From NCBI GenBank assembly GCA_044892505.1, contig CM097882.1, forward strand, positions 527,000,001 through 527,064,000: a DNA stretch of 64,000 nucleotides, in the 5' to 3' direction. Below, one piece after another: positions 1-55,320 of this stretch. Under the pieces are notes generated by a model. The model searched no databases. It was not told the origin of the DNA and was given only the letters and a program-made list of their open reading frames with translations. The position numbers and the translations under genes were made by a program. Origin of the DNA: Schmidtea nova (Eukaryota). Numbering within the stretch: position 1 is the stretch's first letter; every line of letters begins with the position of its first letter.

Positions 1-123
1 TACACTCACCCGCAGGACAATAGCATACAACCTACATAATATCTTAAACATCGGACCGGTTCAACACTGAACCACCAACTGCAACCTACAGAGTTTCACC
101 CTTGAGTCGAGTAGGTCGACGGT

Positions 124-129
124 TATAAA
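124..129 (+). promoter_or_regulatory. Candidate LTR TATA box (copy at 26352-26357)
   Basis: TATAAA about 60 nt upstream of the LTR ORF-A start. Motif only. Confidence 0.35.
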
Positions 130-184
130 TAATTGCGCGCACCTGACAAATTCACCACAATAACATATTCTTGTCTTCAGCAAT

Positions 185-820
185 ATGATAAAGACCGAAG
201 AATACCAAAGAAGTCTGAGCACCTCTCGACAGATGAAAGTGGAAGATTATGTCATCCGGAAACCACGACGCATCCGTTCCGTCGTCCGGCCAAGGAGGAT
301 CCCTACCATCGATGGAGAAATGGAAGCCCCACGCAGAATTAGCGAAACTGCGCGTCGACATCTACGTCGGTGGACAAGACACCATATGAGTGCAGCCGCA
401 GGTATTCCGGCTTGCGCCTTCACGATACAATTACGATGGGAAGGAGACCCCGATTGGATGTCCACTATGGACCCTGCCGAACCAAGGACCGATAGGTGGT
501 TCTTTCAATTCCTCGACGGACAGAGACGACCCCGCTGGGTGTTGAGCAATGAAATGATGACGGGAAGGGCTCTATATCAATTAGGGTACATGCTGCTAGA
601 CAGGCCTCGGTGTCGCTACACTGAGGAAGTCTTCGCTTATTCCAACGCGCCAGGAAGTGTTTCCGTGGAACAACACCCCGAGCCCAAGGAGCTTCGCCTC
701 TGGGAGGTGTTTATCTACAAAGATAAGCTGAGTTGGGACCCAGCCCCAGAAATGTATTGGGAGAATGGAATTCGTCGCGACGAGCATCCTGCCGATCAGG
801 AATTGAGGACATTCAGTTGA
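185..820 (+). CDS. LTR-encoded ORF-A, 211 aa, unknown function
   Basis: Intact in both LTRs. Diverged homologues at 33216-33500 and 54426-54755 share MLL..E(V/I)F, EPK and D(K/R)(L/I)xWxxxxE. Confidence 0.75.
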   Translation: MIKTEEYQRSLSTSRQMKVEDYVIRKPRRIRSVVRPRRIPTIDGEMEAPRRISETARRHLRRWTRHHMSAAAGIPACAFTIQLRWEGDPDWMSTMDPAEPRTDRWFFQFLDGQRRPRWVLSNEMMTGRALYQLGYMLLDRPRCRYTEEVFAYSNAPGSVSVEQHPEPKELRLWEVFIYKDKLSWDPAPEMYWENGIRRDEHPADQELRTFS

Positions 821-970
821 TTGATGCAGCCGAGAAAGAATGATTGTCGTAGATATAAAAATATATGTATTTGTGTGAGAACGGTCTGGTTTTGTTTTGA
901 GTGCATGAGAACAACCTAAGGATAAGGTAGAGTTGTTTAATGACGATAGGATGACCGAAAGATCAGACAC

Positions 971-1570
971 ATGACAGATACTACCATTAATGATATATTT
1001 ACAGACATGACGGAAACCAAGGGCAGAGATTTCAAGTCAGAGGCGCGAGAACATAAGGCGCGCTCGCGAGTTCTGGAGAATCGGTTAAGGCAGCTGAATG
1101 AGGAGCATCAGCGGATTAAAACGACCTGGTTTAACCCAGAGCGGGTTAAGTCCATCCTGCAGGCTAGGTACAGGGCAGAACGAGTAGCTGAGGAACATGC
1201 CAGAGAGATTGCAGCCCTGAAGTTGGAGTTGGCGAATTATTTGAAGGTGTCGACCCGAGACTTCATCACCGAACAATTGCGCCCCGTGATCAGAGCGAGC
1301 ACCTTTAATCGATGGATAGACACGATAGCGGTGACTACGAGCACCCAAACAGAGAATGCATCGACCGTAGCCACGGCTACTACCGTGACGAATACAATTC
1401 CCGCAGGCACACAACGCACAAAGAGAAGGAATCGCCTCGGCGCGAAGAAGCGGAGGGAAAGACGCGCGTATGCAGATCGTCTCGGAATAGAAGTAGACTT
1501 GCTCAGCGGTCTATCTGAACAAGAACTTCTGAATGTTATCAGACCCTCTGTATTATTAAATCATAAATAA
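971..1570 (+). CDS. LTR-encoded ORF-B, 199 aa, coiled coil plus Arg-rich motif
   Basis: Intact in both LTRs. N-terminal coiled coil and basic tract RTKRRNRLGAKKRRERR. Homologues at 53505-53770 and 35860-35990. Confidence 0.78.
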   Translation: MTDTTINDIFTDMTETKGRDFKSEAREHKARSRVLENRLRQLNEEHQRIKTTWFNPERVKSILQARYRAERVAEEHAREIAALKLELANYLKVSTRDFITEQLRPVIRASTFNRWIDTIAVTTSTQTENASTVATATTVTNTIPAGTQRTKRRNRLGAKKRRERRAYADRLGIEVDLLSGLSEQELLNVIRPSVLLNHK

Positions 1571-1966
1571 ATGTATAAAACGAATGACTTGACTTGTTTT
1601 GTTTGATTGTGGAATGTTTGAGAATCGAATGTAACAAAAACCCGGGTTCATTTAAAGCTGCAGATATCTAAAGAGTAAATTACCCTAGAACAAAGGAAAG
1701 AGCGCATTAGAAGTGGGACCGAAAGAAAGCCACAGACACCTTCTAACGGTAGTGGTGGACCCGTGAATAAACAAGGGAATAGTAGCCGAAAGGTTGCTCA
1801 CCTGCCTTGTCATTTCACAACGTTGACACAGTACCAACATGATGAGTAGTTAGGGATACATCATGGGTGTCAGCGGGGGAATGTTTTTATGTTGGCGAGA
1901 TTCACCCTAACGTATAAAATCATAAGGATCTCAGTTGTCACTCCAACCAACACACCAGCATAAATT

Positions 1967-1985
1967 TGGGGGCTCAGCCGGGATT
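1967..1985 (+). promoter_or_regulatory. Primer binding site complementary to the tRNA-Pro 3' end
   Basis: TGGGGGCTCAGCCGGGATT vs canonical tRNA-Pro PBS TGGGGGCTCGTCCGGGATT (17/19), 3 nt after the LTR end. Confidence 0.88.
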
Positions 1986-2520: not shown

Positions 2521-2979
2521 ATGGAGAACAAAATAAAAGAAATGCAAACGTTTTTCGAAACAAACAACGAAACAGTGGAGACAGTAATGAGAAAGTTAAA
2601 ACAACTCGAGGTAGGAGGATATCACGAACCGACAAACAACACAGAAAGAGCCGAAATGATAATGAGCATAAGCGAGAATAGGAACACAGTGGATACAGCA
2701 ACGAGATATAAATGGTACAGAGAAAGATTAAACAACCCTGAAATGAATATCGAGTGCCACAGGCTAGAGCAACAGTTAACAACAAAACACGATGAGTGGA
2801 TAAGAATAACAACAGAACATACGAGACAATATCTGACGTGTTATATCTGTGAAATGAACCAAATACAGATAATGTTGTTGCCATGTGGGCATTTTCGATT
2901 CTGTAATGAATGTAAAATAAATGAACGATGTCCTATGTGCAACCTTCCCGTATCCGAGAAAATAACAGTGTACTTGTAA
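2521..2979 (+). CDS. Element cargo: 152-aa protein with a C-terminal IAP-type RING finger (putative E3 ligase), no BIR
   Basis: CYIC...LLPCGHFRFCNEC...CPMC..PVSEKITVYL-stop matches the IAP/MDM2-type C-terminal RING pattern. Confidence 0.85.
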   Translation: MENKIKEMQTFFETNNETVETVMRKLKQLEVGGYHEPTNNTERAEMIMSISENRNTVDTATRYKWYRERLNNPEMNIECHRLEQQLTTKHDEWIRITTEHTRQYLTCYICEMNQIQIMLLPCGHFRFCNECKINERCPMCNLPVSEKITVYL

Positions 2980-3678: not shown

Positions 3679-4298
3679 CGTGAGCATAGGTCTCATAGTG
3701 AGCATAGGTCTCGTCATAAAACATAACATCCTAGTGAGCATAGGTCTCGTCATAAAACATAACATCCTAGTGAGCGTAGGTCTCGTCATAAAACACAACA
3801 CCGTAGTGAGCATAGTTCTCGTCCGTAAATGTAAATCTTGTAGTGAGCAGAGTTCTCATCAATAAACGTAAGTTCTAACAGCGAACATAGTCCTCATCAG
3901 TGAGCGTAGTTCTCATCAACAAACATAGTCATCGTAGTGAGCGTAGTTCTCATCAGGAAGCATAATTCCTGTAGTCACCATCAGTGAGCATAGTTCTCAT
4001 CGGGGAACATAATCCCCGGAGCAAAGAGTTTCCATCAGTAAGCAAAACCCTCATAACAACCATGTTTTGCCAGTGAGCATAGTTCTCGTCAGTGAGCATA
4101 GTTCTCGTCAGTGAGCATAGTTCTCGTTAGTGAGCATAGTTCTCGTCATTGAGCATAGTTCTCGTCAGTGCGCATAGTTCTCGTTAGTGAGCATAGTTCT
4201 CGTCATTGAGCATAGTTCTCGTCATTGAGCATAGTTCTCGTCATTGAGCATAGTTCTCGTTAGTGAGCATAGTTCTCAGCAGTGAGCATAGTTCTCGT
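3679..4298 (+). repeat. Leader tandem array: 36-bp units (3695-3830), then 12 x 19-bp CAGTGAGCATAGTTCTCGT (4071-4298)
   Basis: Direct reading. All units share the core GTGAGCATAG(G/T)TCTC. Confidence 0.95.
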
Positions 4299-4625: not shown

Positions 4626-5088
4626 GCTGACTGGAAAACCCAGCAGACCATGAGATTCGATGAGAATAAAATGAAACCGGTTTGTTAAGACAGGTAAAGT
4701 GGTAAAGACGCTAGCTGGAAAACCCAGCAGGTCAATGATAACGATCAGGAAAGATCGAGAGAATAAAAGGGAGTAACAATAAAGTGGTGAAATTGAGGAC
4801 GCTGACTGGAAGACCCAGCAGGTCAAAAGTGATGATCATCGGAGCAAAGAACAGGTAAAAGTCGACAGTGAAGAGATAAAGGGTGGAGAATAAGAGCGCT
4901 GACTGGAAAAACCCAGCAGGCTAATGAAACGACAATTGAGGTCGAGAATAATGAAGCAGAAGTAAAAGGTGAGATTAAGAGCGCTGACTGGAAAATCCAG
5001 CAGGCTAATGAGATAATGAGTGATGTTGAGAGTAATCAAGTCGAGATAAAAGGTGAGATTAAAGGCGCTGACTGGAAAACCCAGCAGG
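4626..5088 (+). repeat. Six dispersed copies of a hairpin motif GCTGACTGG-AAAAC-CCAGCAG
   Basis: Copies at 4626, 4710, 4801, 4898, 4983 and 5067, spaced ~85-97 nt. Confidence 0.92.
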
Positions 5089-5964
5089 CCAACGAGAGAT
5101 GTCAGTGGAATTAAAGGTGAGTAGAGATGAGAATTGAAATGAAGTAGTAAACGCAGTATGAATAGGAAATAAAGCGAATAGTTGAGAAACAGAGTAATCG
5201 ATAGATAAGGGGAAATTTGAACTCAGAGCCAGAGAAGCCTGAGAAAAGTAAAGGGAATAATAAGAGCGCTGAGCGACAAAGTAATTGGGGAACTGGGGAA
5301 AAGTAATTGGTGTATTTGATAAAGAATAGATAATTGATGCGACTGCATAGATAATTTAAATAGACTTAAAATCAAGGGAAATGGGAAAAATGGGGATCTT
5401 CAGGAATTATGACTACACCCGTGAGAGGGACGAGAAACACGATAACGGGGACGTATCGTGTAAGTGATTATTTGTTTTAAGGAAACAAATCAATCAAGCA
5501 ATTCAAAGCAATCTAGCAGTCAGAGCAATCAAAGGAAACAAAGCAAAGAAGAAGCAAAGCAAAAGCGGAGTAGAAAATCAATTGAGAATATAAGAAGTTG
5601 AGGAATAGACAAAATTGAGGGACGAGAAACAAGATCAGGTATAATACCAATCTTAACGGAAGCAGAAAGAAAAGCAGCGAAAAGGACAAGAACAGGTAAC
5701 AAGCCTAAGCAACAAAAGAACAAACAAGTAGAGATCAGCGATAATTCGAGTAATAAAGAGAATCAAGAAGAAAACCCAGAAGATCTAGAAGTACAAAACG
5801 AAGTAGAGACGATAGACAGTGAACTAGTCAGGGAAAACAGAACAAGAAGCGAATCAAGAGATAACGAAACAGAGAGTAGTGAAGAAGAAGAGTCGAATCC
5901 GGAAACAAGTGGTGAACTAGAAGCAAAGAAAACTAGTACAGTATTCCAAGACAGTGGAATCGGG

Positions 5965-8900
5965 ATGAGTGAACACAGAGAGGATCTGAGAGAAAAATTC
6001 AAGGGCGAACCATTCAATGGAGACGCCAGTAGATTGGACACGTTCCTAAAGGAATTTGGCATATTTGTGGATATATGCGGATGGAGTGCAGAAACGTTAG
6101 CAAATCGAATCCCGCTATACTTGAAAGATAGCGCATTGGATCTGTATATTGAAAAGAGATCGGGAAGTAGTCCACCCAGAACGTGGGAAGCAATCAAGGA
6201 GTTCTTCCAACAGACGTTTGGGATAAATAAAGTGTTGAACGAAGCGTTCGATGAGTTCTCAGCAAGAAAACAAAGGAGAAATGAGTCAAATGCAGTGTAC
6301 GCAAGCGAATTAAGAAAGTTGGCGAAACTGGCGTTCAAAAGAGGAAGCCCGGTAGATGAGGAATTGATGACAGCGTTATTCGTACGAGGTCTCAGGAGAC
6401 CTGACATCAGAGCACAAGTGGGATGCAAAGGATGTAAAACAGTAGATGAAGCGTTGGAAGCAGCCAACCTATTCGAATTGCATATGGCAATGAATGACAT
6501 GAGAATTACGGCGGTAATGGGAAAAACGACAGAAGATGAAGAACAAGGAAAAAGAAACATGAATCAAAGTATTCCCCATTCGCAGAGATTGTTCAAAGAA
6601 CCGCCAGCGAGGAAGAATAACGGATATATTACGGTGAATACGAATGGAGGAAATAGTTACAATGACAGGCAGAATAGGCAATGTCAGACGTGTGGGAAAA
6701 ACGGACATTGGCAACAAGACTGTTTTCAGAATGTAGCCTGTAAACTGTGTGGACAAAAAGGTCACTCAGAAAATCGATGTTATGGGAAAACGTGTTACAC
6801 ATGTGGAAAAACCGGACACATGTCAAGAGACTGTAATCAACAGAGAAGTTGGTCAAACAGTGGAAATAGACCGAATTACGGGAATCGACCAAGCCATGGG
6901 AATCAAGGTCAACAACGGAACAACCCAAACAGCAGTGCAAACGAAGCTAGTATGAAAGAAGCTAAGTTGAGACAGGAAGTATCCAGATTACACGAGATAA
7001 TCGAAAGCATGGCAAAGGGAAGCCAACAAGCTGCTCAACCAAAGATAAACATGATCCAGTTAATAGAAGCTGAGGCCGAAAGAGAAAACAGAGAGAGTCA
7101 ACAGAAACATAATCAAGAATGGGCTAGAGTACGACGAGAAGAAGAACAAGTCAGGCAACAACGATTACAACAGTTAAAAAAGGGAAATCCAAGGATCAAC
7201 ATGATGCGAGCAATGATGGAAGAGAAGCAACAGGATGAGTCAGACGAGTTAGAAGTTAAAGAGAAAAGAAACGAAGAGCAGAAACAAGAAGAAGTGAGAC
7301 AGGAAGTAGAAACTACAGAGCAGAATCAAAAAGTGGAAGAAGTAGAAAAAGAAACAGAAACAGAAAAAGAAACAGAAAAAGAAACGAATCAAGAAGAGGA
7401 AGTGAGAATCAAACAAAGAGGAATGTTGGTGATCATGCCGAATGATCACGTGTGGCGATTCAAATACGATGTAAAAGAAGAAGTGGGAAGATTGTTCAAT
7501 AAAGTAAATGAGATGATGCCGGGAGTGACGAAACTGCCCAGAGAAGCATTCCTACAAACAGAGGATCTACCAGAAGTGAAGTTAAAGATGACTGATATAT
7601 GGGAAGATATGGGAGTAACGGAGACGAAAATAAACGTGATGATCATCAGAGAGGTGGAACCGGAGAAAATCCCACCACCAGTGAAACATCAAACTCGGAT
7701 CAGTCGAATATTTAAAGGAAAAATAAGACGGAGACGGTTGGAAGAAATAGATGAATTAGGGAAAAGGATGGGAAAAGCTGAAATAATGGGAGACGAGAGT
7801 GAAATAACACAGGAAGTTAGCAAAAACGAAGCGAGACCAATCGCGCATATTGGGATGCTGAGACACCCAAGACAAGAGTTGTCAGATGAGGAAGACGACA
7901 GCGAAGTTAGCAGTCTGGCAGGAGACATGCTAAAGGAACCAGAAAACGAGGACAAAAAGATGGAAGTAGTCGAGACAATAGAAACATTGTCAGTAACGGA
8001 AGACGAAATTCAGAAGCTGATGGATAACGCGTTGGAAGTAATCCATAACGAGGAGTTTATCGACGGGAACCGATATAGAAAGTTTATACGAGCAGTATGG
8101 CAGATGAAGTATAAAAAGTGGTTACAAGAAAGAGAAGTGAGAGTAATACAAGAGTTCATAGAGAGGTTATTGAAAGAACCACTCAACGAATACATAATAC
8201 AGATATGGATAAACGAGTGTTCACCGAGAATCTGGATAAGGAACCCAATGACGGATGGAATTTACCGATGGGTTGAAGACAGATTGGGAAGCTCGTACAA
8301 AGACAAATTCATATATTCGGAAAACGGATTGGTGAGAAAAGGAACGCATATGATAGACACAGGCATATGGCCAGGAGAAATAACAACGCTATCTATATGC
8401 AACACCAAAAAGGAAGAGAACTTACAAGGAATCGTCAAAGAAGCGAATACGTGTTACGAGATGAGAATAAAACCTCAGTTGCTAGAGGCAAAAGAAAGAA
8501 TCTTGGCAGAGAACTTAAATACGATGATAGAGCAGATCATCCAGCAAATCAAGAAACATCGAAAGGAATTGACGAAAAACGAGTATGAGAATTTGAAACA
8601 GTGTATCGAGAACATACGAGATACAAGTCAAACGAGACATTCGAATTTCAAAACGGACAAGCTAATTGCAAAGATGGGAAAAGAAATGTTTAAACGAGGA
8701 GAGGTATCAGACCTGAAGATTACCGTGAGATTGCCGAACGAAGAGACAAGACAAATTGAGGTAATACCAGATAGTAAAGTGGGAGAAATAGTAGATGTCA
8801 TCAATGAGACGATATTACAACGAGAACGAGAAGACGAATTCGAGAATGACATTGCGATAAAATACAAAGAACACCTACTAAACGAACGTGACGAAAGACG

Positions 8901-20986: not shown

Positions 20987-21337
20987 ATGAACCAAGAAAA
21001 TATCGAGATGTCAATGATGACGAGATGGAAAGTACAATGCGACCTGCTAGCCAGAACAGTAAATGAATTACAGAGCCAGTTGACGGCAAAAACGCAATTA
21101 TTAACCGAGAGTTATAACGGTAATTTCGAAGCAATGAACAAAATCGAGATCCAACAAATACAGATAAACGAATTACAGAACGAGAACCGAACATTAAATG
21201 AAGTGAACAACTGGCAAGCAGAGGAAATTGATCGATTAACGAGACATGAAGAGGAGGAGATACCGGATAGTTGGACGAGCTGGATTGTAAATGAGATAGA
21301 CGTGTATCCAGAGCCAGATTCAACTGAGGATGTGTAG
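20987..21337 (+). CDS. Element cargo: 116-aa coiled-coil protein
   Basis: Intact ORF with the element's codon bias and heptad pattern. Ends EPDSTEDV. Confidence 0.7.
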   Translation: MNQENIEMSMMTRWKVQCDLLARTVNELQSQLTAKTQLLTESYNGNFEAMNKIEIQQIQINELQNENRTLNEVNNWQAEEIDRLTRHEEEEIPDSWTSWIVNEIDVYPEPDSTEDV

Positions 21338-21427
21338 TGAATAAGCGGAAAATTGTGTAAATACGTGTAAATAAAGAACCAGAAAAAATCAAAAATATGG
21401 GGAAATTGATGTAAATATTGTTGTAGA

Positions 21428-22840
21428 ATGAGAGCAGAAAGTGAAGCAGATTACCAAACGATCGAGATTCTAAGAAGAGAAAATCGACAATGGGGAGTAA
21501 ATGTGACGTGTGTAAAGTGTAAAAATCTACTGTTAAAACCGAGGCAAACGGAATGTGGATGCAGGATGTGCACCAAGTGTATATTGCAAATAATCAGTGA
21601 AAGTGAGACAAGAAAGTGTCCAGAGTGTGACGATAAACTACTAATCAACGAGACGAAACCAGACAAAGCAATCCAAAAGGAGATCTGGAAGATAAGAACA
21701 GAATGTATAAACCAACCTTGTGAATGGAAAGGACAAATAATCGAGCTAAGACAACATCTGGAAAAATGTGAAAACAAGAAAGCGATATGTGAAAAGTGTC
21801 AACAGACGATAACCATCAAGCAGTCGAAAAAGCACAAGGATGAGTGCAAAGCAGAGATAGTAGAGTGTCAATACTGCAAACAAAGAGAGACGAGAGAAGT
21901 AATCGAAACAGAACATCTCAACGTAGCAGAAGAGAAAGTGTGCAGAAAATTCAGAGGAATTTGTCCAAGTAATTGCGGAACCGGAGAAGAAGTGATGTTG
22001 AGAGAACATTGGGAACAGTGCGAATCCAGACCAAGAAAGTGCGTATGGAGTAAACAAGGATGTGCAGTACAGATAACGAGCAAAGAGATGAAAGAGCATT
22101 TGGAAACGGAAACGGTACAACACGCCGAGATGTTAACAGCAAATTTGAACGGAATGGAACAAACCATACAGAAACTGGGAAAAGAAATCGAATCTCAGAG
22201 GATAATGACGGAGTTATTACTAGAAACAAGAGAGCAATTCGAGCTCACCAGAGAGAAAATGATGGAGAAAATCAAAGTCATAGAGACGCTAGTAAAGGAA
22301 GTAAATGTACGACATCAAATGTGGATACGAGATACAGAGGATATCGAGAATTTACCTGTTGCACCATATATATGGAAAATCAAGAATTTCAACGAAAAGT
22401 TCGCAGCAGCAAGAGCAGGAAGCCAAGTGTCGGTAACAAGTCCACCATTTTATCTGTGGAAAAATGGATACAAAGTTCGAATGAGAATTTATCCAAATGG
22501 AGATGGATCAGGAAAGGAAACGCATGTGTCATTATTCTTTGCGTTGTGTAAAGGTGGTTACGACGACATATTAGAATGGCCACTAGAGACAAAGGCGATA
22601 ATGAGAGTGAGAAACTCGAAAGAAACAATAGCGAGAGTATTCAAAATTGATGGTAAGCACGAAGCTTACAAAAGACCGACCACAGAATGTTCATTAGCGA
22701 CTGGAGAACCAAAATTCATACCACACCAAACAATGTGGGAAATGTTGTATGACGACAACTTATATGTAGAGTTGGAGATCGAAAAGAAAGCAAGTACAAC
22801 AGTGACGAACACGAAGTCAACGAAAGGATGGTTGGAGTAG
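21428..22840 (+). CDS. Element cargo: full-length TRAF-family protein (RING, TRAF zinc fingers, coiled coil, MATH), intronless
   Basis: RING CVKC..PRQTECGCRMCTKC..CPEC; zinc fingers C.N..CEWKG..L.QHL..C; MATH YIWKIKNF..SPPFY..GYKVRMRIYPNGDGSGKETHVSLFF..DDILEWP. Confidence 0.95.
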   Translation: MRAESEADYQTIEILRRENRQWGVNVTCVKCKNLLLKPRQTECGCRMCTKCILQIISESETRKCPECDDKLLINETKPDKAIQKEIWKIRTECINQPCEWKGQIIELRQHLEKCENKKAICEKCQQTITIKQSKKHKDECKAEIVECQYCKQRETREVIETEHLNVAEEKVCRKFRGICPSNCGTGEEVMLREHWEQCESRPRKCVWSKQGCAVQITSKEMKEHLETETVQHAEMLTANLNGMEQTIQKLGKEIESQRIMTELLLETREQFELTREKMMEKIKVIETLVKEVNVRHQMWIRDTEDIENLPVAPYIWKIKNFNEKFAAARAGSQVSVTSPPFYLWKNGYKVRMRIYPNGDGSGKETHVSLFFALCKGGYDDILEWPLETKAIMRVRNSKETIARVFKIDGKHEAYKRPTTECSLATGEPKFIPHQTMWEMLYDDNLYVELEIEKKASTTVTNTKSTKGWLE

Positions 22841-22929
22841 TCAGAGTGAACGACCCTGTAAATAAAGTGTAAAAATCGACAACAACCATAAACGTATAGT
22901 ATAACCAGTGAAAATTTGTAAATTGCAGA

Positions 22930-24090
22930 ATGGAAAACGCAAATGAACACGTAATCGAAGATGAAACGAGAAACGAGATGTCGAACGAACGAGAAGAAAT
23001 AGAAAGGGAGATCGAAAGGAGATGTAAAGTGGAAGTGGAACAAAAAACCAGAGAACTGCGCGAAGTGATGACAAATAATTTCTACGAAAAACTGAAATGC
23101 GAGAGACGAATGGAGTTATATCAACTGGAACTCGAGGAAGTGAATAAAGAGATGATACAACTGACAACACAAATAGAGAAGCTAAAAGGAACGAATGTAC
23201 GAAGTCGACAGAAGATAGAAGAGGTATATCAGTTGATGAGGAAACAAGCAGAACATTATAAAAATATGATGAAAACGCGAAGGGAAGAGAGGGAGAAACA
23301 AGAGGAAAAGATGGAGGGAAAAATACTAGCAATCAAGGCTCAAGCGAGACATTGGAAAATGGAGTCGAAACGAGTGTATAAAGAAGCCAAAGAGATAATC
23401 AGAAAGACAGCATACAGCGAAGATTGGAAACTGTATCAAGAGATAGACGAATTAAAAGAGGAATTAGAACAGAGAAAGCGACAAGAACAGACCAACAAAG
23501 AATGGAGTCGAAAACGGCAACGATTTATTCGAGAGCAAGCAAAGGAACTAAAGAAAACGCAATGGCAAATACAGATGATAAATGGAGAAATGCGAGGTAT
23601 CAGACAGAAAGAGGAAGCGGAAAGACAAAAGTTGATCAGGGAAAAAGAAAGTCTGGAAAGAGATGTAAATGGTTATCAAGGGGTGGTGACCCAAAAGAAA
23701 ATGGAGTTGAAAGCAGTGAAAGAAAGACATGCGGAATCAAACCGAGCTTACGAGGAAAACATAACGAACTTGACGAAAGAAAATGAGGAGCTGAAACAAC
23801 AAATAATAACCCTGAAAGCAGAGAAAGAAACCATAGAAGTAGAAACCGAACCAACAGAAGTAGAAGCCCTGAAGAGAAAAGTGGAAGAGATGGAAAGACA
23901 AATGGAAACTCTGAGCGAACAATCAGACTATATGGAGTATCTGTTAGATGAAGAGATACAAATCTCTCGAACGTATCAAGATGAAATTGCAATGTGGCGA
24001 AGCAGAGTGGTGTGGTTACCGTTTATACCACCACCACCAATGGAGCTCCAAGATGAAGGGTTTCATGAACCAGAGGAGACGGATGTGTAA
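22930..24090 (+). CDS. Element cargo: 386-aa long coiled-coil protein ending ETDV
   Basis: Intact ORF, E/K/R/Q-rich heptads, PPPP near the C terminus. Confidence 0.8.
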   Translation: MENANEHVIEDETRNEMSNEREEIEREIERRCKVEVEQKTRELREVMTNNFYEKLKCERRMELYQLELEEVNKEMIQLTTQIEKLKGTNVRSRQKIEEVYQLMRKQAEHYKNMMKTRREEREKQEEKMEGKILAIKAQARHWKMESKRVYKEAKEIIRKTAYSEDWKLYQEIDELKEELEQRKRQEQTNKEWSRKRQRFIREQAKELKKTQWQIQMINGEMRGIRQKEEAERQKLIREKESLERDVNGYQGVVTQKKMELKAVKERHAESNRAYEENITNLTKENEELKQQIITLKAEKETIEVETEPTEVEALKRKVEEMERQMETLSEQSDYMEYLLDEEIQISRTYQDEIAMWRSRVVWLPFIPPPPMELQDEGFHEPEETDV

Positions 24091-24163
24091 AAAGAGGCGA
24101 AAAATCCGTGTGTAAAAATGTACAAATCGATGTAACAGGTATTAATCAGTAGAATAATCAGAA

Positions 24164-24688
24164 ATGAACTGGCTCAAAACCCTACCAATCCTAACGATTA
24201 TGTTAACTGCAACAATAATGAACTGTTCAACAACCGAAATACAAAGAACCCTGTCAAACGAGATATCCCAAGAGATCGAAAAACAACTAAACGAAGTCAG
24301 AGAAGACTTGAAACAATTAATCCGGCAAATGCGAATCAGTCATGATCATCGCAAACCCTTACAAACCCTATTCAATCAAATCGAGAAGATCCGAGAAATC
24401 CATAAAACCTTCCAAGATCACCTAAAGCCAATCAAAGGTCAAACCCAAATCGAATCCGAAATCCGAAACAGATGGATCATCGTTGGAATAGTCACAATGA
24501 CAATATTAACAATCATCTTGATCATCGTGATTACGTATACCCTATATCGAATCAGAAGCCTCAAACAACAACAAACGATAATGTGTAGATGCGCCAAAAG
24601 AGAAGCAAAAACCCAACAAAGAATGAGAAGCCATCTACGACAAATTCAAGCCCGATACGAAATGCAGTCAACAAGTGAAAGGACCTGA
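24164..24688 (+). CDS. Element cargo: 174-aa predicted type I membrane protein
   Basis: Signal peptide MNWLKTLPILTIMLTATIMNCS, short helical ectodomain, TM WIIVGIVTMTILTIILIIVITYTLY, basic tail. Confidence 0.78.
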   Translation: MNWLKTLPILTIMLTATIMNCSTTEIQRTLSNEISQEIEKQLNEVREDLKQLIRQMRISHDHRKPLQTLFNQIEKIREIHKTFQDHLKPIKGQTQIESEIRNRWIIVGIVTMTILTIILIIVITYTLYRIRSLKQQQTIMCRCAKREAKTQQRMRSHLRQIQARYEMQSTSERT

Positions 24689-24877
24689 AAATCAACCCCT
24701 ATGAGCCAGAAACATTGAACTGTGTATAAACAATAAAAACATGACAATGACAATGTGTGACTTTGTATAAAGGGGTATGAAAGCTACCACCTTATGTGGT
24801 TTTGCATGTAAGTTCTGTCACGAACTTTTTATGTATGTTGATGTAGGTATATGCATGTAATTGCGGGACGCAATTTT

Positions 24878-24891
24878 AAGGGGACCCCGAG
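24878..24891 (+). promoter_or_regulatory. Putative polypurine tract
   Basis: AAGGGGACCCCGAG immediately before the inferred 3' LTR start. Short and interrupted by CCCC. Confidence 0.5.
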
Positions 24892-26412
24892 TGATGTTGG
24901 GCCAGCCAAATCGAGCAGCATCTGAAAATAATATACAATCAACAAAATAAATTAAATACAGAATAACAACAAAATAAATTACCAACACCAAAGCGTAACA
25001 AAATAGGCGGCAACATCTAAAAGAAATAAAATATTAATCAAAACAACAAAAATCTTCAAAACTCACTCATGCGAAGCAGATAAAATTGGAATATGACAGC
25101 GCGTGGGCGGATGTCACCAAAGACCTAAAACAAAAATAAAATAAAATAAATTGATGACTAAGAAAAACTTACCGCATGATTAACCAAACAAATCGGCAAG
25201 TTAAGTTAGGCAGCAAAAAGCCGACAACATGAAAAAATGAAGCAAACATACACACATACTCGATGCTGATTGGGTAACCAACAACACCGGTTCAGTATAA
25301 ATACTGAAGTCAAATCAGTATTTGACAATGTCATTTTTTCCGAGTGCAAGTTGTAACTGATAACTTGTAATAACCTTGTATCGGAAACCAGTTGGAAATA
25401 AAAGGTATGTTGGAGTTATGTTTTGTATCATTCATATAAACCCTCATAATTATAATTGTTAATCGTATTAAAATCCATAAGGTTTTCCGGAGGCCTAACA
25501 GCCTGACGGATTCTTGGGGCCTCTCAGCGCAACACAATCTTTCGGTTGTGAGGTGCTGATGCGGCGGGACCATAGGTGTTCTAAATATTTAACAAGCGGA
25601 AGGGGGAAGTGCACATAGGATATCTCATGCCATCGTAACATCAGTATGGGTAGAAACAATTGATGGGCGTATCATCTGTCACGACAACATCGAGTACATG
25701 GGTATACATAAAAGACGTGTTGATAGACAAAAAGTGTCCAGCGTTCGTGAAGTCAAGTAGAGTAACGACAGCTTTGTGCAGAGGGTAAGTATCATGATAA
25801 ATTGAGCACTGACGATGATAGAGATATATAACGCATGAGTCATGTGAGTCAGAGGCCGACAGTGCTAGCATCAGAGGTAAACCATGAATCCACAGGATAT
25901 CCCAACATATATATACGCCTCTCGAAGGGTACGAAGGATAGACCCACGAAATGTAATGCAAGTACAATCTGTACCCAATTAATCTGAGTAAGGGGTCGAT
26001 CATGTTCCCCGGATGATGTGACCCTTGATAGTTGAAAATGAGGTATGGAGATAACACCTGAGGAGTGATTGAGTATGATTGCTGTAGATACAAACCAAAA
26101 TGGTCTCTGAAATGATGATATTCAAACATAATAAATGGTCAAGTGATCATCGTAGATGAAAACGGATTGTCATAAGCGGCACTGAATTTTTGCGTGGCCA
26201 AATCATATAAGCAACTTGATATAGTGAATACACTCACCCGCAGGACAATAGCATACAACCTACATAATATCTTAAACATCGGACCGGTTCAACACTGAAC
26301 CACCAACTGCAACCTACAGAGTTTCACCCTTGAGTCGAGTAGGTCGACGGTTATAAATAATTGCGCGCACCTGACAAATTCACCACAATAACATATTCTT
26401 GTCTTCAGCAAT

Positions 26413-27048
26413 ATGATAAAGACCGAAGAATACCAAAGAAGTCTGAGCACCTCTCGACAGATGAAAGTGGAAGATTATGTCATCCGGAAACCACGACGCA
26501 TCCGTTCCGTCGTCCGGCCAAGGAGGATCCCTACCATCGATGGAGAAATGGAAGCCCCACGCAGAATTAGCGAAACTGCGCGTCGACATCTACGTCGGTG
26601 GACAAGACACCATATGAGTGCAGCCGCAGGTATTCCGGCTTGCGCCTTCACGATACAATTACGATGGGAAGGAGACCCCGATTGGATGTCCACTATGGAC
26701 CCTGCCGAACCAAGGACCGATAGGTGGTTCTTTCAATTCCTCGACGGACAGAGACGACCCCGCTGGGTGTTGAGCAATGAAATGATGACGGGAAGGGCTC
26801 TATATCAATTAGGGTACATGCTGCTAGACAGGCCTCGGTGTCGCTACACTGAGGAAGTCTTCGCTTATTCCAACGCGCCAGGAAGTGTTTCCGTGGAACA
26901 ACACCCCGAGCCCAAGGAGCTTCGCCTCTGGGAGGTGTTTATCTACAAAGATAAGCTGAGTTGGGACCCAGCCCCAGAAATGTATTTGGAGAATGGAATT
27001 CGTCGCGACGAGCATCCTGCCGATCAGGAATTGAGGACATTCAGTTGA
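26413..27048 (+). CDS. ORF-A copy in the 3' LTR
   Basis: Identical to 185-820 except W->L. Confidence 0.75.
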   Translation: MIKTEEYQRSLSTSRQMKVEDYVIRKPRRIRSVVRPRRIPTIDGEMEAPRRISETARRHLRRWTRHHMSAAAGIPACAFTIQLRWEGDPDWMSTMDPAEPRTDRWFFQFLDGQRRPRWVLSNEMMTGRALYQLGYMLLDRPRCRYTEEVFAYSNAPGSVSVEQHPEPKELRLWEVFIYKDKLSWDPAPEMYLENGIRRDEHPADQELRTFS

Positions 27049-27198
27049 TTGATGCAGCCGAGAAAGAATGATTGTCGTAGATATAAAAATATATGTATTT
27101 GTGTGAGAACGGTCTGGTTTTGTTTTGAGTGCATGAGAACAACCTAAGGATAAGGTAGAGTTGTTTAATGACGATAGGATGACCGAAAGATCAGACAC

Positions 27199-27798
27199 AT
27201 GACAGATACTACCATTAATGATATATTTACAGACATGACGGAAACCAAGGGCAGAGATTTCAAGTCAGAGGCGCGAGAACATAAGGCGCGCTCGCGAGTT
27301 CTGGAGAATCGGTTAAGGCAGCTGAATGAGGAGCATCAGCGGATTAAAACGACCTGGTTTAACCCAGAGCGGGTTAAGTCCATCCTGCAGGCTAGGTACA
27401 GGGCAGAACGAGTAGCTGAGGAACATGCCAGAGAGATTGCAGCCCTGAAGTTGGAGTTGGCGAATTATTTGAAGGTGTCGACCCGAGACTTCATCACCGA
27501 ACAATTGCGCCCCGTGATCAGAGCGAGCACCTTTAATCGATGGATAGACACGATAGCGGTGACTACGAGCACCCAAACAGAGAATGCATCGACCGTAGCC
27601 ACGGCTACTACCGTGACGAATACAATTCCCGCAGGCACACAACGCACAAAGAGAAGGAATCGCCTCGGCGCGAAGAAGCGGAGGGAAAGACGCGCGTATG
27701 CAGATCGTCTCGGAATAGAAGTAGACTTGCTCAGCGGTCTATCTGAACAAGAACTTCTGAATGTTATCAGACCCTCTGTATTATTAAATCATAAATAA
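27199..27798 (+). CDS. ORF-B copy in the 3' LTR
   Basis: Translation identical to 971-1570. Confidence 0.78.
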   Translation: MTDTTINDIFTDMTETKGRDFKSEAREHKARSRVLENRLRQLNEEHQRIKTTWFNPERVKSILQARYRAERVAEEHAREIAALKLELANYLKVSTRDFITEQLRPVIRASTFNRWIDTIAVTTSTQTENASTVATATTVTNTIPAGTQRTKRRNRLGAKKRRERRAYADRLGIEVDLLSGLSEQELLNVIRPSVLLNHK

Positions 27799-28192
27799 AT
27801 GTATAAAACGAATGACTTGACTTGTTTTGTTTGATTGTGGAATGTTTGAGAATCGAATGTAACAAAAACCCGGGTTCATTTAAAGATGCAGATATCTAAA
27901 GAGTAAATTACCCTAGAACAAAGGAAAGAGCGCATTAGAAGTGGGACCGAAAGAAAGCCACAGACACCTTCTAACGGTAGTGGTGGACCCGTGAATAAAC
28001 AAGGGAATAGTAGCCGAAAGGTTGCTCACCTGCCTTGTCATTTCACAACGTTGACACAGTACCAACATGATGAGTAGTTAGGGATACATCATGGGTGTCA
28101 GCGGGGGAATGTTTTTATGTTGGCGAGATTCACCCTAACGTATAAAATCATAAGGATCTCAGTTGTCACTCCAACCAACACACCAGCATAAG

Positions 28193-28374
28193 TGTTATAA
28201 TAAGCACTGTATAATTGTTTCATATTATTGATTGATTGTACCAGTGTAAATGTGAAACCAATTGTGATATCAATAAAGACTCCTGTTGTAATTGTTATTC
28301 TATTGATTAATAAAGCACGCATTTGGAGTCAGATGTTTAATAGGTAACTTTTAAATTTCACCAACAACCCAACA
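28193..28374 (+). repeat. Short (~182 bp) TG..CA LTR-like dispersed repeat
   Basis: TGTTATAATAAGC...AATAAAGCACGCATTTGGAGTCAGA...CCCAACA. Related copies at 60339-60536 (-) and 61330-61510 (+). Confidence 0.7.
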
Positions 28375-28546
28375 AAATTGTATAATCTTTATTAATAATT
28401 TTTGTTGTTTGATATAAATTTTAAACAGAAAAACTGCATGTTGAGAATCTCAAAAAAAAATATATATATATATATATACCTCAACACATGAAAAACATAT
28501 TTGATATAGATAAGTAAGAATTTACAAAAAGAAATCTAAAATTTTA

Positions 28547-28613: not shown

Positions 28614-28661
28614 CTACAATTGATAATTAGAAATAAAATCAAGAATGACAATCCTTATTAC

Positions 28662-28920
28662 CTATGATGACTAAGAGCTCTAGGAAGCAAATTAAAAACC
28701 GTGAACATAGCAAAAGCTATTGAAGCTAAAGATTGCATGGCTAGTGCATAACTGAACCACTCAACAATTTCACCGAAATAATTGGCACAAGATACATATT
28801 CGAAAAAAAATCCCTTTGGAATTTTATATTGTCGTGAATCTGCGCTAAATTCCCTGAGGTTTCTTAATTGCCAATCTGATACAATATTGATAAACATTCC
28901 AATGACGAATCCGAGAATTC
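28662..28920 (-). CDS. SRD5A1: SRD5A1/2-like, exon 3
   Basis: TTTCAAG acceptor; GILGFVIGMFINIVSDWQLRNLR..YKIPKGFFFEYVSCANYFGEIVEW..RALSHH; GT donor. Confidence 0.93.
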
Positions 28921-32980: not shown

Positions 32981-33215
32981 GGCTGGAGTCAACCAGAATA
33001 TATTTCGTTTTAATTTACAACGAACCGGAGAAATTTGAACTGCGTTTCCGACCGAAATTATTTCCCACAATTGCGATATTAGAGAAATCTTTTCCTCAAA
33101 ATTTTACTGTAAGATAATCGTATAACCAGGACTAACCAACCACTGAATACCAGTAAAATTGAAATTCCGTAACATTGAATTTTTAAATTTTGTAATTATA
33201 CTTTAGATAAAATCC

Positions 33216-33500
33216 GTGTTTTGCTATGATCATCGAATAACTTCGGGAGCAGAGAGAGGAGAGAATCAACGTTTGTCATCAACGGGAAATAGCAAAATAG
33301 AACCGGAATATAATAATCATTTGTACATCACCATGCTATTAAAAACCATTCCAACTTCGCTGGTGCGTGAAATTTTCGAAAAACATCAACAAGATTTTGT
33401 ACGGGGCGAAGAACCAAAATTTAGTCTTTTTCGCAATAGCCCCGATCGAATAGTGTGGTACGGTAGCGCAGAATGGCCGATAGACGTTGTGATGAATGTG
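33216..33500 (+). mobile_element. Relic of a related giant-element LTR (ORF-A homologue)
   Basis: HLYITMLLKTIP..REIF..EPKFSLFRNSPDRIVWYGSAEWPIDV aligns with 54426-54755 and with LTR ORF-A. Confidence 0.6.
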
Positions 33501-35028
33501 TATAAGAACAATGGTGAACAAGGGCACCACAGTTTATATAATAAATTTGGAACAAAGTTATATCAGAATCTAATTCAATATCCTTTTCATTAAAAGATTC
33601 AGAATCTTCATCATTTTTACTAGAGTTGACTATCATAAGTGTGAAGTTTAACTTAAAACTATTTTGAACACATTCTGGTGTCATATGATTTCATACATCA
33701 AGAATCCAACTGCATGCTTCAACATACGATACACATCTCATTCTTCCTGTTTTTGTAAACGTATGAATTACATTAGTTATCCATTTCTCATATTGTTGAT
33801 GCATTTTGGATTTGAATGTCTTTTTAAAAATCAAATCGAGTAGTTGTTAAATTTTTATTAACCCTTCAGGAATGACCGCAGTTTCAAATAAGAATTGACG
33901 AAAACCGAATTCTTACACGTTGATGAGACTATCGATCTATTTGGCCGTAATTGGCTCGTTCATCAAATCTTTATTTGTGACGCTTACGATCATTTCTTTT
34001 GTAAAGTTATCCTTTGGCAGTTTTCCCTTGAAGATAACCATAAGATTTCCCATCATCTACTTTGCAACATAATGGTACAGTGAATTTTAGTTTTTCTGAA
34101 CAAGCGGTTAAGAGAATGATATGTTTTTCCATTTTCATCGATGGTTTAGTGTTGGTAAAATAAAAAACTGCAACTTAGTTCATATTCCCTATTTAACCTA
34201 ATTTCACGCTAGATTTAAAGCCAAGGAAGTAATTCATGAAATTTCTCTCTTGCCTTCCAATCAAAAAGTACTTGCTATCCAACTGACGTGACTATATGAA
34301 AGGATAAATTGTTCCTCTTCGTGGATTTGTAGTACCTATTGATTCAAATTATAATTCCAGTTATTTCTGGGAAATCATTCGCATTTTTAAATACTCTAAT
34401 TGGAATTTTACTGTCAAAACTTGTTATTGGATCTCTTGACTGCAAAACACAACTTTCAATTAAATGTCTAGTTTTGGCCAAAACGGGTTCCTTTCTCTTT
34501 GAACGCGTTTAACCACTTCCAATACATTTTTCTCTTTTCTCTCGATTTTATATTCACGCGCCGACAATCAATCCCCTATTTATATGGATATTTTATGATT
34601 TCTAGTTTAAATGATGTTGTATATGAATTACGGCTCTTTGTTGGCATTATTAGTTATAATTTATTAAAGTTAATTATTTTATTAAATATTTTCAAAAAAC
34701 ACTCGTAAAATGAAAAAAATTAGAGTAAAAATATTTGTTTACAAAACTTTTAAATTAAAATTTTAACATAAGATAAATAAAAAGTCAACTCTAATAGGAA
34801 GTTGAAATATAAATTTGAACATAAACTTTCAATTTTTCCAGCAGTTATATTATTTATAATACATTTAAGCAACGGGTTATATTTAGATATCTAGTTGAAA
34901 ACAGTAAATTGTCTGATGCGGTTTATACACAGATACGGCTGATATTCGCGAAAGTACGATAAAAAATTTTAATTAGTGTTTTGATAAAGAGTAACAGTAT
35001 TCAACCACTAATATTTAAATCACAATAC

Positions 35029-36290
35029 TGTTGGGCAAGTGCAAGTTATTGGACCTGTGCAGTTAACTAAGAAAATCGTATCAATAATTATCAAAGAATT
35101 AATTGATAATTGTTTGATTAATTTATCGTAGCGTCATTGATTTTCTAAATAGATTATTGGTTATATTGAAAATTACGACCATGTTGTTGAAATATATTTC
35201 ATTTTTATATAAATAATCCGGACAACTAGAATTGCTTCAACAAGTGTACACATAATTTTGGGTTGATTAGGCAAAAATTATAAAACTAAATATTAAACAA
35301 ACCGCGCAGCAACATAAGAATAAATAAAGGAGAAACATAAATAAAATAGACAGGTATAAATAAATAAACAAAAATAAGGAAATAATAAATTAAACCAATT
35401 AAGGTAATCAAAATCAGGTAAAAAGTAAATAAATTATTGTCAGATCAAGAAATTTAGTGTAGTGTGTTGTCTAAATACATGTATATAAGTATAATTTGTA
35501 AATTTTCTTATTAAATAAAAGACAGAGAGAAAGCGGAGATAGAATGTAAGCGTTCTGTGAAAAAAATTCATTTCATGAACGACTGTTGGAATTAAATTGA
35601 GAGTTAAATATAATAGCATGTAAATAGCGATGTCTGATGGTAACCATATTAATTTTTTTCGGGGAGTTGATATGTTCAGGAGCTAATCATGACACCAGAA
35701 ATAAAATGGAAAAGATCAGTGAGCTTTGTACACGAACTACAACAATGACTGATAAAGGTAGACCAAGGAAAGGAGGACCTAAGATTAGAACTATGCGCTA
35801 CCCAACTAGAGTTACAAAATTACAAGAAGGCAATGGAAAAGTCGTTCATGGAGAGAGAACCGATAGAATTCGACCGATAACGTTCCTTGATGGCTCCAGA
35901 GAGACACAAGTCAAAGCAGCTCTCGGAGTGTCAAGACGCAATCGATTGAGCACAAAGTAACGTCGTAAGCTGAAGCGACAACGGAAGGAACAATTTAATT
36001 TTCAGTTTATTTGATATATACAAGAATTAGTGACCAAGATTGGCGTTAGGAGAGAAAATGTAAAGTCTTCTATCGACCAAGGTGAACCCTTAAAGAAGAG
36101 ATTAGTATGGATTAGTCATGGTAATATAGCTCACCACCTATTAACACTCACCAGTCGCGGTGTATATAACAAACACAATTGTCTGAAAATAATTCTGGTT
36201 ACGCTTGCGATGGATTAGAATGTCATGTGCTTAAAGATTAAATTGGATAAGATATAAACCCTAGATCGATACACGAACACGCCAACAATA
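35029..36290 (+). mobile_element. Decayed solo LTR of a related giant-element family
   Basis: TGTTGG...CCAACA termini, A-rich U3-like start, ORF-B-like IRPITF..RRNRLSTK*RRKLKR, U5-like motifs CTTCTATCG and GCTCACC. Confidence 0.6.
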
Positions 36291-49683: not shown

Positions 49684-49734
49684 CTGAAATTAAAAAATTA
49701 TTATTCAATATCAACTGCAAGATAATAAATTAAC

Positions 49735-52613: not shown

Positions 52614-52999
52614 TTTATCTTTGCTTGCTTTATTACATTTTAATTTAATGTCCCTTTACGAAACAGATTTTTACCGATCATTAATAATAGCGTGTGAGAC
52701 ACCGTTTTTTGCATGGTTGCCGTTACTGTGACAATTGAACAAATTCAATGTCCAGCATTCATTGGGATGGACAACTAAATTCAATATACTATTTGAATTA
52801 TTCGTTTTGAGGAGTTTAAAAAGGAAATAAAAACGGCTTTATTATCCAAACTCAAACGCAATTCGAATAAGACTGATCGCGAACCCTGAGAATTGACGTT
52901 TCCCCATTCAGGTACAGGCAGCATCATTTGAGATTAGGTAAATCCAAATAAAGTATTTCAACACCAACAATCGATAAGAAATTGTAAAATATTAAAATG

Positions 53000-55320
53000 T
53001 ATGGGTTATTGTGAAAAAATCAAAACCCAAATCTGTACGCTTACTGGATTTTCTATTTCTGAAATACACTTCCTTGCTCTCTGGGGTCCAACACACACAT
53101 AAAAGCTTTACTGTTCATGCACCCGTGAATTACGCTAATCATTCACGTTGGTAATGTACATAACAGCCGATCGCAAGTCAGCAGGTGAGCTCCTTTACAA
53201 GAACTACTCCTGACTTGTCGCATCGTTCGGGTTCTAGCTTGACCGATAGAAGGTCTCATTCATACTACCCCTCACCCATCGCTGGTCACTCTTTCGGGTG
53301 TTCGCTTACGGTTTCTTACCTCGCTTCTTTATTCCATTATACTACGAGTTCACGTCCGCTGCATTTCTTTTTAATTATTTAGTGGTTTATATTTCCTAAA
53401 ACCCGGTGATTTACAACTATTGTTACTATTATTTAATTATAAGAGGACTTTATTTGAAGAAACAACACGAAATTTCATATACATATATTTTTATCTCTAT
53501 CTTATTACAATCTAATTAACCAGGATTTCTGAGTCTTTCGCGAATTTGGTCGGTTGATGTCCATCCCGGTGGTTACTTTATTCGCCTCGATTCCCAATTT
53601 CAGCTTCATCTGGTGACGCCGTTGCGCATGTGATTTTATTCTCTTCTGTTTTGGCAGCTGGGCTGTCGTTGTCGCCTCTATGGCTGTACTCTCCAGTTGA
53701 TCCGGCTTGGTAAACCATCTCTCTAGTGTTATTGGCCGAATCAAATCCCTCAGATTTTCGAAAAATAACTATTCTCGATGTCGATAATTCTTCTTTTCAA
53801 CTGTCCCGGCGTTTTTTCATTGTTAGCCATAGTTTCCTATGTAATGAAAGAAAATTCTAACTGGATGATTCTATCTAACAGTAATACTGATAATCTTATG
53901 CAACTCCAACTCGGTTTGTATAAAACTACTCTACCTTTTATCAATCACCTTCCACGGCCTTCCTTGGACACCCCTCCCTTGGTCATTTCTGTTTGACTAT
54001 TTCTGACTTAATACCCAACCCGCATTACCTTGTTCATTATTTTTCAAGCTGAATTTTCCTACTTATTATATGTTACGATGTCCTCTGATCTTTAGCGTTC
54101 TAATTAGGTTATCTACGCTTACACTATACTGCAAATTTCGGTAAATAAAAGTTTTATATAGTCATGTTAATACTTAAAAATGATTGATAATAACACATAA
54201 AAGCTGTTTATGTGTTATAGGTATATAATTTAAACATTCAACATAACATAACAATTTAAATTAGTCAATTTCGATAGTTTCTATATCGCTGGAAGTTCTA
54301 TCCTATTCACTCAAGGTCGAAGGGCTGAATGAAGAGTCGGTGGGGCTTGGTGTGGGGGCGGGAGCGAACACGAATCGTCCCGTGCCTAGAAATTCGGCTT
54401 GGAATATCTCACCTTTGAAATATATCTAAAATCTCTCTGGAATTTCAGTGGGAGTTTCTACAAAATATTTTGCTGCATTAGGCCAGAAAGGGTGATCCAC
54501 GTCGATCGGCCACTCCTTGCTGCCATGCCATATGATGTCTGCCGGGCTGTCTCGGAATAAACTAAAAGGAGAGACAGCCCGGTTTGGGATATTTTTGAGC
54601 GGCATATGCATAACCAAATAATTATTGTAAACGTCTGGATTTGCAGTTGATATACTGGTGGTGGCCGACTCTCCTCTGGTACCCCGAACTTGTAATCCAG
54701 TGTGGAACATGCTTGTTACTAAAAATACGAAAATAATGTTATATATAATATACAAACGGGTCCCTCGAATTTCCTTAGTCTAGTATTCACTTGAATCATT
54801 GATAATCGAGAGTGTTAGTTGTTGGTTCAAATTTGGTTTGAAATTCATTATCCTAAATTGATTGTTCAGGTACTTATTTAAGTACGGTATTCTCCTGTTA
54901 GAATTTACATGTTAATTGTCAGGGTTTTTATAACACCATTTCGCCATATGGACGTGGTAAATTTTTGTAATGGTCGGTTTAACTTTATTTGCAGTAAGAT
55001 TGAGCGTTTGACAATGTCGCGATCTATGCATTTCTAGGAATTTTATTCCCTGCGAAATCATTTAATTGTCTGTCGACTTTCCCGGTAATTGTCAGTCTCT
55101 TATCCATTCTATAATTATCATTTCTTATTCTTCCGGTAATTAAATCCCCTTTGTCGGTATCTCTAGTCAGGAAAGTAATACTCTCGGCGGTACTCTCACC
55201 ATGCGCCACTACAATTATCGTTATCGGCCAACTTGGTATTTGATAATTATCTCCGCTCATCGGAAACAAATCGCCAGCACGCTGATAATCCTCCTCCTGT
55301 GTCAATCAACTGTCAACTAA
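53000..55320 (-). mobile_element. Decayed LTR of a related giant-element family carrying ORF-A and ORF-B homologues
   Basis: Minus-strand order: MTQEEDYQR.., FSLFRDSPADIIWHGSKEWPIDV, ENLRDLIRPITLERW..KLGIE, then U5-like motifs (ACCTTCTA, GCTCACCTGC, TACCAAC, TTTTATGT) matching 1737-1895. Boundaries approximate. Confidence 0.65.

Follow-up and report, generated by a model that had tools for sequence, protein, structure and literature searches.

Two open reading frames, ORF-A and ORF-B, lie whole within both long terminal repeats (LTRs) of a large retrotransposon in Schmidtea nova and look like genuine accessory genes. From the signals that surround them, we judge it probable on balance that they are the last genes in a cassette of processed accessory mRNAs.

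The element and the genes in its LTRs

Bases 1-28188 of the window (the whole stretch of 64,000 nucleotides that was analysed) form one large LTR element, 28.8-29.5 kb in length depending on the LTR edge chosen. Its features are:

1..1960 (+): 5' LTR, left part outside the window, ending in CA at 1960
185..820 (+): ORF-A, 211 aa, 5' LTR copy, intact
971..1570 (+): ORF-B, 199 aa, 5' LTR copy, intact
1715..1960 (+): right-end block of the LTR, non-coding and conserved, common to the relics described below and to many genomic copies
1967..1984 (+): primer-binding site
2521..2979 (+): accessory ORF, C3HC4 RING, 152 aa (Pfam)
5965-20862 (+): 4965-aa polyprotein (ORF list and Pfam)
20987..24688 (+): four tandem accessory ORFs (ORF list, Pfam)
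24896..28188 (+): 3' LTR, left edge uncertain, CA right edge at 28188
26413..27048 (+): ORF-A, 3' LTR copy, intact, one residue different
27199..27798 (+): ORF-B, 3' LTR copy, intact, identical to the 5' copy

A Ty3/gypsy pol (PR-RT-RH-IN) was found between the long LTRs, and the best match of the RT among solved structures is Ty3 RT (E 6e-79). Within the ~5000-aa ORF, env lies between gag and pol in the same frame. The polyprotein comprises Gag and CCHC knuckles, a fusion glycoprotein of mononegavirus type, protease, RT, RNase H and integrase, as well as ankyrin repeats; ankyrin and MATH/TRAF domains were detected in the element by Pfam. The four tandem ORFs encode proteins of 116 aa, 470 aa (TRAF-like), 386 aa (coiled-coil) and 174 aa (with one hydrophobic segment), and the gaps around them are 124, 90, 89 and 73 nt. 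Classified by its sequence, the element is a Burro-like giant Ty3/gypsy element. Burro/GYPSM1 is a planarian giant Ty3/gypsy element whose ~5000-aa polyprotein has env in frame between gag and pol (PMC6431247), and GAG-ENV-POL elements are known from nematodes, bryozoans and flatworms (excerpt of PMC13524379). Burro shares with the present element this polyprotein and env arrangement, the mononegavirus-like glycoprotein, ankyrin repeats, MATH/TRAF, accessory ORFs, tandem repeats and a size of ~30 kb (PMC6431247). The two differ in that TRAF is here a separate downstream ORF and that BIR, BCL2 and dUTPase were not detected here by Pfam. Neither Pfam nor PDB gave a match for BIR, BCL2-like, dUTPase-like or ubiquitin-like motifs, and the Burro paper had used HHpred. 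By eye, stretches at 8700-10800 and 13550-13950 look ubiquitin-like, BCL2-like and dUTPase-like without Pfam or PDB support, and they fall at positions reported for Burro.

The polyprotein frame is open for ~120 codons ahead of its first ATG (5599-5964), so 5965 is a provisional start for gag. The leader between the RING ORF and gag contains tandem repeats of 36-38, 19 and 84 nt (3696-4298; 4872-5097). We take the primer-binding site to be tRNA-Pro-like; Rfam and ARAGORN gave no match.

Over 1963 positions the two LTR copies show 2 differences (99.9% identity), and the one difference inside ORF-A is non-synonymous. For the left edge of the 3' LTR we favour 24896, where the first 8 letters are as in the relic R35 and read depth rises in the bin (depth being a hint for LTR edges only, not for copy number); the alternative is 25610, after a purine tract. 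ORF-A and ORF-B are within the LTR under either edge, and the stretch that holds them is probably U3. The block at 1715..1960 is probable R/U5 or core promoter. Folding of the LTR right end is only slightly better than that of shuffles (z -1.8). Read depth is very high at 27943-28191, and 21-27 contigs of unlike sequence join at 27943. It seems that many LTR types have this end block in common but differ in what lies upstream of it. The 3' LTR adjoins a short repeat (28192-28375) that is related to 60349-60538 and 61364-61503.

As the original prediction stated, both ORFs are intact in both LTRs and were present at all four sites. Two ORFs of at least 199 aa were obtained in 0 of 1000 dinucleotide shuffles. 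The N-terminal third of ORF-A is Arg-rich and the remainder Trp-rich. Both genes are richer in GC, and their codon usage departs from that of the rest of the element. Variants came from four DNA contig sets of one study, which cover many element copies and may be the window's own source. Among the 40 of 700 variants listed, 6 of the 8 that lie in the two genes are synonymous (3/3 in ORF-A and 3/5 in ORF-B), and none of the 12 indels listed (of 84) falls in either gene. In a loose-end read inside ORF-A, 9 of 30 letters differ, 7 of them at third codon positions by hand count; three residues are replaced conservatively and the frame stays free of stops. Another loose-end version inside ORF-A has 6 of 9 differences at third positions (hand count). 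Because the variants are biased toward synonymous changes, selection on the LTR genes in this young family is supported, the samples being small.

An antisense ORF of 162 aa lies upstream of ORF-A at 25641-26129 (-); 1 of its 3 listed variants is synonymous, and it therefore gives no sign of coding. Over 22500-28200, G>A places (102-120) exceed C>T places (61-71) in all four runs, and many sites have A in nearly all contig depth where the window has G. This strand-biased change may be editing of this lineage.

Related LTR relics in the window

The window contains two decayed LTRs and a separate open frame that were compared with the LTR genes:

33207..33593 (+): F33, open frame of 128 codons, homologous to the gene in the A slot of R53
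35029..36290 (+): R35, decayed solo-LTR-like relic with TGTTGG...CCAACA ends
~35690-36010 (+): broken ORF-B homologue of R35
52999..55320 (-): R53, decayed LTR relic, left edge approximate
53768-53508 (-): best piece of the broken ORF-B homologue of R53
54710-54300 (-): R53 A-slot gene, with one internal stop

The proposal that R53 and R35 are related LTRs was borne out by alignments of the right-end block and by a motif search. The block, which R53 also carries, aligned with z 6.8 between the LTR and R53 and z 6.3 between R53 and R35, but only z 1.8 between the LTR and R35. A gapped motif from the block, derived from these same copies, matched the LTR pair, R53 and R35 and nothing else, versus matches in 0 of 100 shuffles. 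The 5' LTR end resembles the R35 end. DNA alignments of the left parts of the LTRs to the relics were not significant (z <=1.8), and no clear target-site duplications were seen at the relics. The relic genes are disrupted by stops and frame changes. All three LTR lineages retain the heptamer GCTCACC (1796-1802, 28024-28030, 36129-36135 and 53184-53190), which reads on the opposite strand as a splice-donor-like site; a further donor-like site lies on the minus strand near position 9.

Motifs of both proteins had been predicted to persist in the relics. For ORF-B this stood as a weak homology, with z 5.0 against R53 (1 of 2000 shuffles) and z 5.8 for the N-terminal part against R35 (0 of 2000 shuffles), but the tblastn E values, 0.027 and 0.11, were modest, the relics being the top 2 of 15 matches. 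The basic part gave z 2.1 against R35, the homologues of R53 and R35 aligned with each other with z 4.1, and a short N-terminal piece of R53 gave no signal against ORF-B in the shuffle test. One unrelated host window among 1584 windows ties with R53 for similarity to ORF-B, a similarity that owes part to coiled-coil or basic composition. In both relics the homologue sits directly ahead of the homologous LTR-end block, and we accept the homology because of score plus position. The presence of ORF-B homologues in the same slot of both relics is weak but supported at the sequence level.

The predicted homologues of ORF-A found no support. ORF-A gave z 1.9 against the R53 A-slot protein (106 of 2000 shuffles) and z -0.06 against F33. 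Three other, softer matrix settings gave z <=1.8 against the relic A-slot. Profile comparison found no link either: hhalign returned a probability of 0.2%, and a profile built from the pair of relic A-slot proteins missed ORF-A among 606 six-frame ORFs. We rejected the C-terminal 'DKLSW' motif that had been offered as evidence, its register being different from that of the best local alignment of ORF-A, which uses W85-W91. No A-slot ORF is present in R35.

The relic A-slot proteins of R53 and F33 match each other with E 2e-11 and z 22 (32 of 62 residues identical). Differences between their genes number 43 at third positions and 20 at second positions; pS is 0.83 and pN 0.36, values biased by their computation on alignments chosen by amino-acid score. 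Because they are homologous and differ mainly at third rather than second positions, their sequences mark the two as a selected gene family. F33, described earlier as a relic fragment of the LTR genes, is thus homologous to the R53 A-slot gene but has no significant match to ORF-A. The order predicted for R53 is correct for the ORF-B homologue followed by the right-end block with its U5-like motifs, but the gene in its A slot has no significant link to ORF-A. Likewise, of the ancient selected pair that had been proposed, ORF-B across three LTR lineages and selection in the young family are supported, but an ancient pair is not.

It is possible, though we would not call it probable, that A and B are nevertheless one ancient conserved pair and that the A-slot proteins of R53 and F33 are true, very diverged homologues of ORF-A. 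The slot, order and signals are alike in R53, all three proteins contain W-x-G-x-x-[DE]-W, and the R53-A windows rank 8-10 of 1584. A pair of this kind has to be reconciled with z values of at most 1.9 in all tests, the hhalign result, the change of register and the absence of A from R35. A distant homology between ORF-A and the relic A-slot may exist through the W-x-G-x-x-[DE]-W motif, in the other register. Because ORF-A has no significant relic link and R35 has B alone, a changing cargo slot fits as well as a fixed pair. The A slot may hold exchangeable or very fast-evolving cargo.

Processing signals of the accessory genes

A CAG or TAG stands 1-8 nt before the ATG of all seven small ORFs (A, B, RING, 116 aa, TRAF-like, 386 aa and 174 aa). 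Splicing at these acceptor-like sites would place the junctions at 180/181, 966/967, 2517, 20978, 21426, 22928 and 24161. YAG within 8 nt of the ATG was found in 7/7 small ORFs versus 140/648 other ATGs (P 2e-5); the P values for this signal pattern are somewhat flattering because the test of the YAG rule came only after it had been spotted. The polyprotein ATG has no preceding YAG, and none of 3 host gene starts has one. T occurs at -5 in 5 of the 7 small ORFs (background 0.17, P 0.002), and the 22 nt upstream are T-enriched (48/154, P 4e-4). The two sites in the LTR are:

178..180 (+): acceptor-like CAG 4 nt before the ATG of ORF-A, after a pyrimidine-rich tract; putative role
964..966 (+): acceptor-like CAG 4 nt before the ATG of ORF-B; weak, purine-rich context

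A TATA-like element lies at 124, ahead of ORF-A. The RING ORF has a CAG 3 nt before its ATG and AATAAA 5 nt after its stop; in ORF-B, AATAAA overlaps the stop and is followed by a GT-rich tract. Counted near the 8 stops, TGTA reaches 17 occurrences, where 2.4 are expected and shuffles give 4.3; for AATAAA the count is 5 against 1.7 in shuffles (P 0.026). We take TGTA to be readable also as a CFIm, Pumilio or forkhead site. Six of the 7 element copies of TGTANATA sit in three short gaps. Internal gaps measure 73-150 nt in 5 of 7 cases; those around the RING ORF are 950 and 2985 nt, and the 174-aa ORF is 1.7 kb from ORF-A. By eye, T-rich AG tracts and TGTA also precede the A-slot frames of R53 and F33. 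The YAG and TGTA signals shared by the small ORFs were missed in the original prediction. In order, they appear to form a 3' end signal, then a short spacer, a splice acceptor and the ATG.

The YAG and TGTA signals and the short gaps suggest that A and B are the last two cistrons of an operon-like accessory-gene cassette. Each accessory mRNA would start at the 3' splice acceptor just before its ATG and end at its own polyadenylation signal, and one long transcript would thereby be cut into monocistronic mRNAs. Because the A/B stretch falls inside the LTR, it would be copied to both ends by reverse transcription and left in solo LTRs. With whole genes inside LTRs, every solo LTR therefore leaves coding sequence in the host.

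Release of the accessory mRNAs by host spliced-leader trans-splicing is a tentative possibility. Cis-splicing from a donor in the leader, where candidates lie at 2225, 2303 and 2349, is likewise tentative; together with alternative polyadenylation it would fit the signals as well. Operon spacing in Macrostomum peaks at about 100 bp (excerpt of PMC8629364), and operons of parasitic flatworms have genes <=300 bp apart and UUNYAG acceptors (excerpt of PMC12582326). As far as these excerpts go, spliced-leader operons of flatworms and nematodes resemble the cassette in their co-oriented genes ~100 nt apart and in a 3' end signal followed by an acceptor; unlike the cassette, which is known from DNA signals alone, they are described for host genes. 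Only 2 of the 7 acceptor-like sites match this UUNYAG consensus in full.

Role of ORF-B, other explanations and known systems

No homologue of ORF-A or ORF-B was found among 5.8 billion proteins (near lengths only), or of ORF-B by phmmer among 1.84 billion representatives. The best match of the two in the ESM atlas, 0.82, is at chance level. The proteins had no match in Pfam (above cut-off), PHROGs, PDB, viral contigs, metagenome contigs or exact look-up, and the best match of the ORF-B model in BFVD had E 2.5. The fold model of ORF-A was uninformative (pLDDT 34). The single-sequence model of ORF-B (pLDDT 70, pTM 0.26) predicts long helices over residues 6-129 with confidence, a low-confidence Thr-rich linker and a basic helix at 156-171. 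ORF-B has an Arg-rich motif at residues 147-167, a motif of low specificity that ORF-A has too. The role in RNA export or transactivation put forward in the original prediction has this basic stretch as its basis, and the processing signals add an indirect argument for export. A loose leucine-rich export-signal pattern, counted without a chance control, matches 4 times in B and once in A.

More speculatively, ORF-B could act in the nucleus as a coiled-coil oligomer and bind nucleic acid through its basic helix. The genomic RNA contains at least 7 acceptor-like sites as well as several internal polyadenylation-like 3' end signals, and would need a way out unprocessed. Acting like Rev or CERV, ORF-B would enable the ~27 kb genomic RNA to avoid processing at these signals and to exit the nucleus; it is the best export-factor candidate because it is the sole gene kept in all three LTR lineages. 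In our analysis such a Rev/CERV-like role in escape and export is the single most likely one for ORF-B, and a tentative one. No sequence or fold similarity was found between ORF-B and known Rev/Rex/CERV-type members. CERV of the C. elegans element Cer1 is an orphan nuclear protein, made from a spliced mRNA and needed for the export of unspliced RNA (excerpt of PMC10309623). Judged by the same excerpt, the two cases are alike in the Ty3/gypsy element and the coiled-coil/zipper protein, ORF-B being known from sequence alone; CERV differs in its 517 aa, its shared gag exons, its use of a Cys loop and its location outside the LTR. We likened ORF-B to CERV by description, not by sequence comparison.

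The basic stretch of ORF-B resembles a bZIP basic region as much as a Rev motif. ORF-B might be a bZIP-like DNA-binding LTR transactivator, functionally like foamy Tas, and not an RNA factor. Its basic region has N-x7-R at 154-162, also visible in R35 but missing from R53-B, and Pfam bZIP_1 matched residues 148-181 with E 0.04, although the score of 14.5 is below the cut-off of 27.6. A basic helix is predicted, but the model contains no contiguous leucine zipper helix after the basic region, and the coiled coil of ORF-B is N-terminal. We consider a transactivator doubtful and rank the Rev/CERV-like role ahead of it; roles other than these two make up the remaining probability.

A fuller version of the operon-like reading, also doubtful, would make the element a host-style operon in which spliced-leader trans-splicing and internal polyadenylation free seven accessory mRNAs from a single transcript. 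ORF-B, LTR-encoded, kept across lineages and spread in solo LTRs, would switch the RNA between cutting and whole export, and the middle of the LTR would be a swappable cargo slot.

Alternatively, each accessory gene, A and B included, might have its own small promoter and polyadenylation site in the manner of a DNA virus. YAG would then be start-codon context, and A and B could be transcribed from solo LTRs. Separate promoters are possible because TATAAATA lies ~62 nt before the ATG of both ORF-A and the 116-aa ORF; TATATAA ahead of R53-A and the polyadenylation-like signals after most stops would also suit them, and the TGTAAATA repeats would presumably be DNA elements, TATA- or forkhead-like. 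However, gaps of 73-90 nt would have to hold a 3' end plus a promoter, and the AG-to-ATG distance of 1-8 nt and the T at -5 fit an acceptor better. We regard separate promoters as improbable. A last alternative, that A and B are functionless captured DNA which the element carries along passively and which owes its intactness to the youth of the family alone, is very improbable. A GC content and codon usage that depart from those of the remaining element, the lack of homologues and the mere 2 differences between the LTRs would agree with it, but the variation of A and B is synonymous-biased, B-like coding sequence occurs in two much older LTR lineages, and their processing signals are common to recognisable accessory genes.

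Genes inside or overlapping an LTR include MMTV sag, HIV nef and foamy bel2, which are expressed from subgenomic RNA. These belong to vertebrate Retroviridae and are single ORFs, whereas here two whole ORFs lie in a Metaviridae-type LTR; no sequence similarity was found between them and A or B. LTR retrotransposons with additional ORFs usually have one or two of them, often expressed from spliced messages; they are located in the internal region, for the most part downstream of pol and ahead of the 3' LTR (excerpts of PMC7264820 and PMC5408684). The present element has seven, two of them within the LTR. The Burro text (PMC6431247, section 7) makes no mention of ORFs inside LTRs or of operon-like signals, its figure aside. 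The parts of the literature covered hold no report of whole ORFs in Burro-type LTRs, some of which figures or supplements may show, and listings and the openings of abstracts hold none of operon-like processing in an LTR element. The element type is already known, and it is the operon-like reading that most merits experimental work. For Burro-type elements it is an open question how a ~27 kb RNA expresses many accessory genes yet exits whole, and this locus offers exact sites, namely seven acceptor-like positions, 3' end signals and one conserved LTR-encoded protein. If spliced-leader processing is true, a retroelement would express its genes as a host-style operon. If the signals are those of ordinary cis-splicing, an invertebrate Ty3/gypsy element would have a complex-retrovirus-like organisation.

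Elsewhere in the window, one host gene had two matches at 88% and 68% identity and seven more at 25-32%. Pfam identified an intronless gamma-tubulin complex gene at 50646-52613. The pieces at 49512-50036 and 28658-28945 presumably resemble steroid 5-alpha reductase, and at 31377-32968 an NAE1-like exon is, as we take it, duplicated in inverted orientation on either side of an EF-hand carrier-like piece. At 48020-48914, 40-nt inverted repeats flank a decayed DDE transposase-like sequence, which we assume to be Merlin/IS1595-like.
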